This document shows positions 7,227 to 9,016 of a DNA stretch of 64,000 bases, piece after piece. The translations under genes were made by a program, and so were the position numbers. How positions within the stretch are numbered: the stretch's first letter is position 1; each line of letters begins with the position of its first letter. The stretch is from a virus. Lineage: Duplodnaviria > Caudoviricetes. The DNA is taken from positions 18,130 through 82,129 of IMG/VR virus record IMGVR_UViG_3300030708_002673; one strand, given 5' to 3'. A model generated the notes under the pieces. The model saw only the letters and a list, made by a program, of their open reading frames with translations, had not been told where the DNA came from and did no database searches.

Positions 7227-8335
7227 AGTTTCTCATTGATCTAACAGATCATTGCAACTCCAAGTGTCCTCTGTGTGCCAGACATAAGACATCATATAAC
7301 GATGAGGTTGCGGTGCTCGCACCCGATCCATCAATGAACCTGTCAAAGATTTCACTTGAACAGTGGAAGACATGGTTCCCACAAGAGACCCTTGAGAAGA
7401 CAGAGTTGATCTACTTCCAAGGGTCTTTTGGTGAGCCAACATTATGTGATGATCTGCTTGAGATATATGCCTACACCCTGAAGTCCAACCCCAACATCGT
7501 CTTCCAGATGAGTACCAATGGTGGTACCCGTGACGATGCATTCTGGGGAAGACTTGGTGCTCTCATGGGAGCATCACACAAAGATAGTTTCCTCATCTTT
7601 TCTATTGATGGTCTAGAAGATACCCTGCAGCAATACCGTGTGGGTGTGGACTATAAGAAGGTGATGCAGAGTGCTAAAGCATTCATCAAGGCAGGTGGTC
7701 CTGCTGTGTGGAGGATGCTGGTCTTCAAGCACAACCAACATCAGATACAAAGATGTAAAACATTGAGCAAACTATGGAAGTTCAAAGACTTCCAACACAC
7801 TCGTGTCAATGATATGTATGACGCTAGTGGACGTGGAGACGGTAAGTTTACGTATTCCTACAGGGATAAGGTGCACACCCTGCAGGTAGCAGATGATCCC
7901 AACCAAACGTACCGTCCAGACCCTGTAGCAGAGGACTCAGAGGTCGTGTGTCGCTATGGTCATACCAAAGGTAGTCCTGGGCAACTGAGGATCGATAGTA
8001 GGGGTGTGGTGCACGCCTGCTGCTTCCACCAGTCACGTCTCAGGTTCTTCTACCCTGGATATTATATTGACAATAACCCTGATGCACCTGCGGTCTTCCG
8101 TGACATCAACAACCCGAACAAGGGAGTGGGTGCAGAGTATATGCAGAAGGTCTTCTGGGACAACGTGATTCCCTTGATTGAGGAGCAGGGTGGTATCAAA
8201 TCCATCTCCTTAGAGCACCACTCATTACATGATGTGTTGCAGACTCCCTTTTTCCAACATACTCTGGTAGAATCGTGGAGTAATAGACCGCACATCTGTG
8301 CAGACTATTGCGGTAAGAAAAGATGTATCCGTTGA
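7223..8335 (+). CDS. Radical SAM protein with C-terminal SPASM/twitch-like Cys region
   Basis: CNSKCPLC, GEPTL, STNG, FSIDG; C-terminal C...ACC...CADYC. Confidence 0.9.
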   Translation: MKFLIDLTDHCNSKCPLCARHKTSYNDEVAVLAPDPSMNLSKISLEQWKTWFPQETLEKTELIYFQGSFGEPTLCDDLLEIYAYTLKSNPNIVFQMSTNGGTRDDAFWGRLGALMGASHKDSFLIFSIDGLEDTLQQYRVGVDYKKVMQSAKAFIKAGGPAVWRMLVFKHNQHQIQRCKTLSKLWKFKDFQHTRVNDMYDASGRGDGKFTYSYRDKVHTLQVADDPNQTYRPDPVAEDSEVVCRYGHTKGSPGQLRIDSRGVVHACCFHQSRLRFFYPGYYIDNNPDAPAVFRDINNPNKGVGAEYMQKVFWDNVIPLIEEQGGIKSISLEHHSLHDVLQTPFFQHTLVESWSNRPHICADYCGKKRCIR

Positions 8336-8359
8336 TACAGTTTTCCTTTTCTATATAAT
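8332..8359 (+). promoter_or_regulatory. Sigma70-type promoter upstream of riboswitch leader
   Basis: TTGATA-N16-TATAAT. Confidence 0.6.
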
Positions 8360-8373
8360 ACTACATCATGAAA

Positions 8374-8413
8374 TCGTTCATCCCTTCGGGGACGCAAGTA
8401 AGTCGCGGAACGG
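8374..8413 (+). ncRNA. Glutamine-II (Downstream-peptide)-like riboswitch aptamer 1
   Basis: P1 CGTTC/GAACG, P2 TCCC-TTCG-GGGA, CGCAA junction. Confidence 0.7.
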
Positions 8414-8415
8414 AG

Positions 8416-8594
8416 CGTTCATCCCATGATTGATCTTCTTCTCTACACGGGCATGCTTTGCACTGACGCTGAGGACATAATCCGACGTGCCAGTACACAT
8501 GATGCCATTAGTGCAGCAGTTCAAGCTGAGGTGGTAGCGACCGTAAAGGAAGCAACGCCTGAGTGCAATTGGGACGCAAACGACTGAAGGAACG
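8416..8594 (+). ncRNA. Glutamine-II-like aptamer 2, P2 loop contains an ORF
   Basis: CGTTCATCCCA...TGGGACGCAAACGACTGAAGGAACG; same core as aptamer 1. Confidence 0.6.
8426..8587 (+). CDS. 53-aa peptide nested in aptamer 2 (not in ORF track)
   Basis: MIDLLLYTGMLCTDAEDII...KEATPECNWDAND; GGAG at 8412-8415. Confidence 0.7.
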   Translation: MIDLLLYTGMLCTDAEDIIRRASTHDAISAAVQAEVVATVKEATPECNWDAND

Positions 8595-8627
8595 GGGCAA
8601 AAATCCCATTCTTTTAGGAGACCTACC

Positions 8628-8792
8628 ATGAACACACTGAAGATGATCCGCCGCCAGATCGAGAAGGCAGCTGCCCTTCACGATGCACAGATCACTCACA
8701 CTGCTTACCGTGGTGTGAAGTATGAGTGCAAGCAACCCATTGAGGAAGCTCATGGGAACTTCTGCTATCGCGGACGGACCTACACCAAGTGA
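8628..8792 (+). CDS. DUF4278-like peptide (54 aa, not in ORF track)
   Basis: AYRGVKY and CYRGRTY motifs; AGGAG RBS at 8616-8620; lies downstream of a Downstream-peptide-type RNA. Confidence 0.75.
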   Translation: MNTLKMIRRQIEKAAALHDAQITHTAYRGVKYECKQPIEEAHGNFCYRGRTYTK

Positions 8793-8818
8793 TGAGGTTG
8801 TAACAATCTCATATAAGT

Positions 8819-8846
8819 AAGGGAAGGTTTGACACCTTCCCTTTTC
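8819..8846 (+). terminator. Rho-independent terminator
   Basis: AAGGGAAGGT-TTGAC-ACCTTCCCTT then TT. Confidence 0.85.
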
Positions 8847-8857
8847 TGTTTTATAAT
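8829..8857 (+). promoter_or_regulatory. Sigma70-type promoter overlapping terminator
   Basis: TTGACA-N17-TATAAT. Confidence 0.8.
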
Positions 8858-8863
8858 AAGACC

Positions 8864-9016
8864 ATGGAACGAGACAAACTCAAACTAATCGTTTCCGACT
8901 TGGAAATGCTGCTTAGTGCCCTCAAAGCAGAGGTCTACTCAGATGTAGAAGCGTATCGCTTCGATCAGATTGACCCTGTTGAAATTGATTACGACGAAAC
9001 TTACGAAGGTCCATGA
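8864..9016 (+). CDS. Conserved cyanophage hypothetical protein (50 aa, not in ORF track)
   Basis: MERDKLKLIVSDLEMLLSALKAEVYSD; ATGA overlap with thyX. Confidence 0.75.
   Translation: MERDKLKLIVSDLEMLLSALKAEVYSDVEAYRFDQIDPVEIDYDETYEGP

Follow-up and report, generated by a model that had tools for sequence, protein, structure and literature searches.

A probable glutamine riboswitch of two interlocked aptamer cores with a gene enclosed in one of its stems in T4-like cyanophages

Riboswitch aptamers are usually viewed as compact non-coding leaders, and their use by phages is said to be rare. Aptamers of the glutamine-I class bind glutamine and activate IF17-type genes. The element of the Synechocystis gifB (IF17) gene is glutamine-activated, and bound glutamine was proposed to act by melting a duplex over a putative ribosome-binding site that this duplex blocks (Klahn et al. 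2018, PMC6212724). Tandem glutamine riboswitches have been described (Weinberg et al. 2010, PMC2864571), and 157 doublets together with four triplets were termed pseudo-cooperative (Sherlock et al. 2022, PMC9481103). The glutamine-II class (Downstream-peptide, RF01704) forms a pseudoknot with GGAACGG in the 3' hairpin loop (Huang et al. 2019, PMC6698751), and only two glutamine aptamers have been reported in cyanophage genomes (McCown et al. 2017). Here, we analysed a leader at positions 8375-8595 of a 64,000-nucleotide (nt) stretch, referred to as the window, of the 82-kb IMG/VR virus record IMGVR_UViG_3300030708_002673, a fragment of a T4-like cyanophage, in which two sets of glutamine-aptamer nucleotides surround an open reading frame (ORF) upstream of a gene for a DUF4278-type peptide.

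The leader consists of two interlocked cores, an outer canonical glutamine-I core and a second, circularly permuted core within the loop of its helix P3. It belongs to a self-contained unit (8320-8860) of promoter, two sets of aptamer nucleotides, two ORFs and a terminator, for which computational comparison establishes the nested fold, the coding status of the enclosed ORF, an RNA-level constraint on the end of that ORF and a helix that masks the ribosome-binding site of the next gene. An earlier reading of the sequence, called here the original prediction, had described two sequential glutamine-II-like aptamers, the second of which holds a 53-codon ORF within its stem. All sequence features were found at the positions it gave, including the promoter and the YRG peptide gene followed by a terminator, and its placement of the entire ORF inside an aptamer stem is borne out by covariation of that stem across a conserved ORF family. 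Its class assignment has to be replaced, because a three-way junction, a loop E and a P3 are features of glutamine-I.

The DNA that extends from the first aptamer strand through the second ORF has matches in 423 phage records from Synechococcus, Prochlorococcus and other cyanophages, at 68-73% identity. All 44 of the 44 IMG/VR loci retrieved with the protein of the nested ORF alone have flanking aptamer strands, pattern scans added approximately 315 further contigs, and the pooling of all sources yielded 243 distinct architectures. This recurrence argues that the layout is beyond chance. The upstream neighbours differ among phages S-H9-2, S-BM1 and S-SM1 (speD versus a small hypothetical gene after nrdB), and since different genes precede it, the cassette moves as a unit. 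A scan of genome contigs for cellular doublets with GGAACGG-N0-5-CGTTCAT gave only chance matches in unrelated bacteria, the 14-base pattern being too weak for statements on host genomes.

Covariation among these relatives specifies the partner of each strand (Table 1). The pair G8408:C8420 of the inner P1 (P1in) is G-C in 174 relatives and C-G in 69, and the junction-proximal pair C8379:G8590 of the outer P1 is C-G in 230 and U-A in five, both without any mismatch. Within P3, the fifth pair is G-C in 203, A-U in 39 and A.C in one of the 243 relatives, the fourth is invariant, and the first three vary only by G.U wobbles and three A.C mismatches. The original prediction had noted this AGTCG/CGACT complementarity as a loop-loop contact between aptamers; the pairing stands, and what it forms is the canonical glutamine-I P3 rather than an additional contact. 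Double substitutions point the same way: all 114 of 114 contigs fetched with GCAACG in place of the first GGAACG have CGUUGA as the next 5' strand, a G-C to C-G exchange in P1in, with the first CGUUC and the last GGAACG unchanged; in nine of the GCAACG-fetched loci the outer P1 changes from C-G to U-A, with CGUUUA as the first strand and GAAACG as the last; and contigs fetched by AGUCA carry UGACU in place of CGACU in 57 of 60 cases. These three independent double substitutions fit only the nested fold. Helix P2b also covaries across the intervening ORF, for example as CCCCA/UGGGG (which changes Asp to Gly) or UCCUAUG/CAUAGGA.

Compact relatives, which have the same core sequences without an ORF, lead to the same structure. 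RNAalifold, applied to 30 distinct compact relatives with no preset structure, returned the nested fold with ten pairs showing compensatory changes. At the gathering threshold, Rfam aligns compact relatives (43.6, 42.9, 40.3 and 38.4 bits; cut-off 35) as one RF01739 aptamer that spans both "copies", pairing the first CGUUC with the last GAACG and forming P3 as AGU..ACU around an insert of 38-48 nt. A scan of the window itself at gathering gave no match. A contiguous permuted aptamer standing alone, made of the 3' half of the first set and the 5' half of the second, was also considered and rejected: the P2 strands covary across the ORFs, and in 51 of 63 combinations pairing with the own partner is better than with the cross partner.

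Table 1. Positions of the features of the leader, its flanks and genes nested in related loci (window coordinates unless a locus is named)
Feature	Position	Strand	Basis or remark
NtcA-box-like palindrome TGTATC-N4-GATACA	8324-8339 (GTA-N8-TAC at 8325-8338)		overlaps -35 hexamer; read from sequence
Sigma-70-type promoter TTGATA-16 nt-TATAAT	8332-8359	+	11/12 consensus matches
CGTTCATCCC-TTCG-GGGACGCAAGTAAGTCGCGGAACGG	8375-8413	+	first set of glutamine-aptamer consensus nucleotides; read from sequence
CGTTCATCCCATG	8416-8428	+	second 5' core set
TGGGACGCAAACGACTGAAGGAACGG	8570-8595	+	3' core stretch
Outer P1, 5' strand CGUUC	8375-8379	+	partner 8590-8594; covariation, RNAalifold, Rfam alignment of compact relatives
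P2a hairpin UCCC-UUCG-GGGA	8381-8392 (8381-84 with 8389-92)	+	compensatory changes among relatives
J2/3 CGCAAGUA	8393-8400	+	fits Rfam RF01739 consensus
P3, 5' strand AGUCG	8401-8405	+	partner 8581-8585
Inner P1 (P1in) hairpin GGAACG-GAG-CGUUCA	8407-8421 (8408-12 with 8416-20)	+	covariation
P2b, 5' strand UCCCA	8422-8426	+	partner 8570-8574; A8426 is the A of the nested ORF's AUG
Nested ORF, 53 codons and UGA	8426-8587	+	phrog_504; acidic, two invariant Cys
P2b, 3' strand UGGGA	8570-8574	+	codons Trp49 and Asp50; covaries with 8422-26 across the ORF
Inner J2/3 CGCAAA	8575-8580	+	G8576 and C8577 equivalent to G18/C19
P3, 3' strand CGACU	8581-8585	+	codons Asn52 and Asp53 and first base of the stop
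J3/1 GAAG, outer P1 3' strand GAACG (8590-94) and linchpin G8595	8586-8595	+	same as RF01739 consensus GAAGGAACG
OFF-state (masking) helix, CUGAAGGAA with UUCUUUUAG	8584-92 with 8609-17, around small hairpin 8594-8607	+	covariation, RNAalifold, minimum free energy
Shine-Dalgarno AGGAG of the downstream gene	8616-8620	+	sequence, spacers of relatives
DUF4278-type (IF17-like) 54-aa peptide, two YRG motifs	8628-8792	+	phrog_545; isoelectric point 9.6
Intrinsic terminator	8819-8843 (also given as 8819-8853)	+	closes the unit, 3' of the DUF4278-type gene
P2a-nested gene family phrog_6471, 65-68 aa, motif PYGWHMSCERF	L009:965-1162, L007:800-997, L028:968-1162, about 40 more		
190-192-aa homing-endonuclease-like gene, exactly in the P1in loop	L190:2256-2831, L020:617-1186; also L208, L210, L257, L267, L270		

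The glutamine-I three-way junction, with P1, P2 after a bulged A, and P3, is present in the window, and covariation backs all three of its helices. The inner core is identified as a circular permutation that shares P3 because its junction repeats the outer cyclic order of P1, bulged A, P2, CGCA and P3; two three-way junctions consequently lie at opposite ends of P3. As loop E and the linchpin pair have been defined (PMC6698751, PMC12510878), AGUA at 8397-8400 is one loop E half and J3/1 GAAG, which includes the GA of the nested stop codon, the other; AGUA faces GAA (8586-88) across P3, an opposition found only under the nested fold. In the outer core, G8394 and C8395 of J2/3 are the equivalents of the ligand-site nucleotides G18 and C19 (PMC6698751), and in the inner core G8413 is that of the linchpin G41. 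The pocket nucleotides C1, G2, G18, C19, C39, G40 and G41 are all present in both cores, so that the set of glutamine contacts C1:G40, G18>G2:C39 and C19:G41 (PMC6698751) is complete in each. The CGCA of the inner J2/3 is invariant among relatives, followed by AA in 196 and CA in 47, and a G follows GAACG in 139 of 139 distinct spacers.

The nested ORF belongs to phrog_504, a family annotated T4-GC 430 in S-SM1, and protein searches with it returned hypothetical proteins only. Its pattern of variation marks it as a genuine conserved gene: the ORF codes for protein, given that its length changes by whole codons (53-56 aa), its two Cys are invariant and synonymous sites vary freely. AlphaFold models the product as a two-helix hairpin with moderate confidence (mean predicted local distance difference test score 73.7), and its isoelectric point of 4.2 makes it acidic, in contrast to the basic DUF4278 peptide (Table 1). 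The end of the ORF behaves differently. Codons 50-53 are fixed as GAC (64 of 64), GCA (68 of 68), AAC (56 of 56) and GAC (67 of 68), whereas GAT for Asp, GCT for Ala and AAT for Asn predominate in the rest of the ORF, and several different nested proteins from other phages share the C-terminal Asp-Ala-Asn-Asp (DAND). These last four codons and the stop map to the inner J2/3, the 3' strand of P3 and the outer J3/1. The codon usage and the shared DAND indicate that, as nucleotides of the aptamer, they are held constant at the level of RNA, so that conservation here extends beyond the protein, the point on which the original prediction could have failed.

The boundaries of the ORF are equally constrained, as that prediction had anticipated in treating its start and stop as aptamer nucleotides. 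Of 213 distinct nested modules, 199 have an AUG that begins 4 nt into P2b, 177 have one or more of the AUG nucleotides paired, and 204 have the stop at the same aptamer position. In five loci (L018, L019, L020, L043 and L047) CCA occupies the stop-codon position (CGACCCAAGG), the nested ORF is five codons longer (…DANDPRNGK) and the masking helix described below is down to four of six pairs. The proposed role of GGAG at 8412-15 as a conserved ribosome-binding site did not hold up: the P1in loop varies in sequence and length, and in the region of 8413-15 it is GAG, or begins with GAG (GAGC or GAGU), in only 157 of 243 relatives.

Whole genes also occupy other hairpin loops of the same RNA. Of 235 relatives, 44 carry a 65-68-codon ORF (phrog_6471) within the P2a loop. 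The first codons of this ORF pair, and covary, with its last ones (e.g., AUGUUAACAC with GUGUUAACAU), and its stop codon, UAG or UGA, lies within the 3' strand of the P2a stem. The gene in the P1in loop (Table 1) matches phrog_314 (homing endonuclease; E 9e-9) in PHROGs and has no match in a Pfam search, and in contigs with this insert the covariation of P1in persists across approximately 590 nt. L118 and L156 retain a short remnant of the insert. The strongly conserved DNA of the riboswitch may serve as a homing target. A single superfamily for all nested ORFs was considered and discarded, since the two invariant Cys seen in an ad hoc alignment are set against an hhalign probability of 0.45% for ORF B versus ORF A, and homology of the two families is therefore not supported.

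Between the outer P1 and the DUF4278-type gene lies the putative expression platform. CU[G/A]AAG, which combines the stop of the nested ORF with J3/1, is complementary to CUU[C/U]AG entering the downstream Shine-Dalgarno sequence. The resulting masking helix of 6 base pairs, extended to 9 in the window, covers the Shine-Dalgarno bases A8616 and G8617 and is part of the unconstrained minimum free energy structure of 8366-8640. Among 179 distinct spacers, 168 have G or A at the central anti-Shine-Dalgarno position, and the central pair in these is G-C in 67, G.U in 57, A-U in 44 and A.C in none. The DUF4278-type gene itself is a regular companion: of 179 distinct loci, 167 have a YRG..YRG peptide gene 31-67 nt downstream of the aptamer, both motifs being invariant or nearly so in the family. 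The peptide of the window reaches 22.5 bits (E 1.5e-4) against Pfam PF14105, below the curated cut-off of 25.3 bits, and 43 of 48 sampled family members match PF14105 at E ≤0.01 (best E 2.3e-7).

Two further observations concern this part of the locus in relatives. In 34 distinct relatives (e.g., L002:1725-1765, L009, L011, L021 and L023), but not in the window, a stable hairpin (GGAUCC-NNNN-GNRA-like loop-NNNN-GAGAAGG) is inserted between aptamer and Shine-Dalgarno sequence; it is optional and shows compensatory changes. One contig with a compact double riboswitch also contains a PhotoRC-II RNA (RF01717; L057:1021-1116, 57.1 bits).

Taken together with the class assignment, the comparison makes it probable that the leader is a glutamine-I (glnA-type) riboswitch of two interlocked cores that acts as an ON switch for the DUF4278 gene and whose P2b encloses an ORF. 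Without ligand, CUGAAG(GAA) at 8584-92 would pair with the sequence 5' of, and overlapping, the DUF4278 Shine-Dalgarno site; folding of the sensor would take up the same nucleotides and release the site. Because sensor and masking helix compete for these nucleotides, sensor folding should unmask the site, which would make the element an ON switch. By analogy with gifB, we infer that glutamine binds at one or both cores and that the direction is ON. A ribosome that initiates at 8426 or terminates at 8585 would have to unwind P2b, P3 and P1, so that, from geometry, a folded sensor and a translated nested ORF should exclude each other, as the original prediction had reasoned when it let ribosomes on the nested ORF unfold the sensor. 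Low glutamine would then probably favour the nested gene and high glutamine the DUF4278 gene. More tentatively, both cores may be glutamine-binding and coupled cooperatively by the P3 that they share, which would give a sharp response, with the folded sensor blocking the nested gene or genes while unmasking the DUF4278 gene. If so, the level of host glutamine would decide which proteins ribosomes make from one phage RNA, and the riboswitch would have two outputs that respond in opposite directions and a coding sequence that is itself part of the sensor.

Several points weigh against this interpretation. Nearest-neighbour energies favour the masked state by approximately 8-10 kcal/mol (-78.8 to -81.4 versus -71.2 for the nested fold), a gap that is compatible with an ON switch but of which tertiary contacts and ligand would have to supply much. 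The inner core is without loop E, its J3/1 is only 1-2 nt long, and the 3-nt hairpin loop that holds its linchpin G8413 may be sterically tight. Copy 1 alone (8373-8416) scores 28.9 bits against RF01739 (cut-off 35), and 8372-8419 scores 25.9 bits against RF01704 (cut-off 33), while the 143-nt insert prevents covariance-model scoring of the full element; a covariance model built for the compact nested fold reports the window at 8373-8455 with 34.3 bits, its 3' half misplaced into the ORF and the insert unbridged. The relatives share kinship and are thus not independent samples. The ORFs are not required for the switch, as the compact relatives function without one, and a ribosome terminating at UGA 8585-87 would also open the masking helix, so output may depend on more than glutamine.

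Three other explanations deserve comparison with the interlocked ON switch. Sequential tandem aptamers, as originally predicted, would place aptamer 1 at 8375-8412 and aptamer 2 at 8416-8594, with the ORF in the P2 loop of the latter and a P1 for each. Identical strands permit both pairings in the window, copy 1 by itself has Rfam matches below threshold, Weinberg et al. aligned one such sequence sequentially, and Sherlock et al. (2022) count their 157 doublets as tandem; the second half of the compact relative L075 even passes the RF01704 cut-off (34.0 versus 33 bits), a match that can be ascribed to the shared pocket sequence. The wider set of relatives nevertheless makes this arrangement highly improbable: over 243 architectures it leaves junction-proximal P1 mismatches in 68 (aptamer 1) and 69 (aptamer 2), compared to none for the nested scheme. 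It also leaves the covarying AGUCG/CGACU helix unexplained and the loop E halves apart, its helices alone reach -13.5 versus -20.7 kcal/mol for the nested fold, and RNAalifold and Rfam both pick the latter. A sequential fold could still occur as a transient co-transcriptional intermediate.

The other two explanations keep the nested fold and differ in what the ORFs do. They might be passive passengers, small genes packed or acquired by the phage in hairpin loops that, like those of introns, tolerate insertions, next to an ON switch that operates with no coupling between translation and sensing. This would suit the presence of genes in three loops (P2a, P1in and P2b) of different phages, one of them homing-endonuclease-like, the retention of the riboswitch and of a stop-codon-like UGA/UAA in compact ORF-less forms, and the lack of detectable homology between the ORF A and ORF B families. 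We consider it rather unlikely, given that AUG and stop positions are fixed, that the ORF B family is always inside this RNA wherever flanking sequence is present, and that a ribosome on the nested ORF is incompatible with P2b, P3 or P1; moreover, relatives with loops such as GUUC or GAAC are without GGAG, and initiation should therefore be sensitive to the stem. Alternatively, translational coupling might dominate, with ribosomes that end at UGA 8585-87 melting the masking helix and turning DUF4278 on, and the aptamer setting how frequently the nested ORF is translated. In favour of this, the 5' strand of the masking helix includes the nested stop codon, the middle base of which covaries with its partner; the next AUG follows the stop after 31-67 nt, and the nested start codon is within P2b. 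However, compact relatives, in which no ORF ends there, share the UGA/UAA-containing helix and its covariation, from which we infer that the masking helix evolved as a riboswitch expression platform, and coupling would raise output with the sensor unfolded, the reverse of the gifB logic; dominance of coupling thus seems unlikely, and more so than passive ORFs. The interlocked ON switch remains the explanation that we prefer.

Features upstream of the leader suggest a further layer of control. The -10 hexamer ends 7-9 nt 5' of CGTT in 186 of 242 scored relatives, a spacing from which the transcript is expected to start at, or just before, the aptamer. An NtcA-box-like palindrome is also present upstream in relatives such as L009, L010 and L057, and of 271 distinct relatives, 145 have a strict GTA-N8-TAC in the 70 nt that precede the aptamer; most of these boxes end 44-47 nt 5' of CGTT, immediately upstream of a TTGACT -35 hexamer, and a second class ends 38-40 nt 5' of CGTT. 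The box of the window ends 36 nt 5' of CGTT and overlaps the -35. With an NtcA-box-like palindrome at the promoter of the window and of relatives, transcription of the unit may also be nitrogen-controlled. In many relatives (e.g., L010, L029 and L032; …GGTCTATAATAGACC…) a perfect palindrome, GGTCTAT-A-ATAGACC, contains the -10 hexamer; the window does not have it. Downstream, a perfect 12/12 promoter match (TTGACA-17-TATAAT, 8829-8857) shares sequence with the terminator's descending arm and T-tract and precedes a 50-aa ORF (8864-9016, phrog_878) and thyX.

These results show a known aptamer class to occur in hundreds of cyanomyovirus genomes, where its form escapes covariance-model scans. What is new is the natural circular permutation of an aptamer within the P3 loop of another copy, the presence of whole genes in up to three hairpin loops of one aptamer, and the use of codons that double as ligand-pocket and junction nucleotides. 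The locus offers a testable system for translation against ligand sensing on one RNA, for cooperative binding by cores that share a helix, and for the reading of host nitrogen status by a phage when it deploys an IF17-like peptide. A further suggestion from these data is to re-examine published "tandem" glutamine riboswitches for the nested fold. In the literature searched, which left out Ames & Breaker (2011) and Ren et al. (2015), no description of a nested, permuted or phage glutamine riboswitch was found.

Among the known systems, the closest is the glutamine-I aptamer (RF01739) of the gifB leader. Both have the CGUUC/GAACG P1, the bulged A, the P2 hairpin, CGCAAGUA, loop E, P3, GAAGGAACGG and the ligand-contact nucleotides, and with the gifB leader the phage element also shares the position at the 5' end of the mRNA and a DUF4278/IF17-type gene downstream. 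A duplex that masks the ribosome-binding site and competes with the 3' strand of the aptamer was proposed for gifB and is supported by covariation here. Unlike in gifB, the P3 loop is itself a second, circularly permuted core and one to three hairpin loops contain whole genes; the element is phage-encoded, the start, last four codons and stop of the nested gene are aptamer nucleotides, and Rfam does not detect it at gathering. The published tandem doublets (PMC2864571, PMC9481103) resemble it in having two consensus sets a few bases apart upstream of one gene, and the compact relatives found here are probably among them. In contrast to the side-by-side arrangement published for these doublets, covariation here shows swapped P1 partners and a shared P3, which puts one core inside the other. 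One sequence with the AGUCA/UGACU variant of P3 is included in the alignment of Weinberg et al. (2010), which takes it for one aptamer of the sequential type and leaves the ORF in the flank, and neither nesting nor nested ORFs are mentioned in that paper or in Sherlock et al. (2022). With glutamine-II the element has in common the pocket nucleotides CGUUC, CGCA and GGAACGG and an association with YRG/DUF4278 peptides in marine picocyanobacteria, and glutamine-II is, like the inner core, without loop E and P3; here, however, the helices are nested, the single linchpin pair is the only pseudoknotted contact, and the outer core has both P3 and loop E.

More distant parallels are found outside the glutamine classes. 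The tandem glycine riboswitch likewise combines two homologous amino-acid aptamers in one leader with one expression platform and physical coupling, but its aptamers are sequential and joined by tertiary contacts, whereas the two cores described here share a Watson-Crick helix and one is permuted inside the other; their cooperativity is only a hypothesis. Group I and group II introns hold ORFs in peripheral loops, including those of homing endonucleases, with long-range helices that close over the ORF, and splice themselves out of the transcript. The cyanophage element differs from these introns in being a riboswitch in a translated mRNA, in which the coding sequence supplies core nucleotides of the aptamer.

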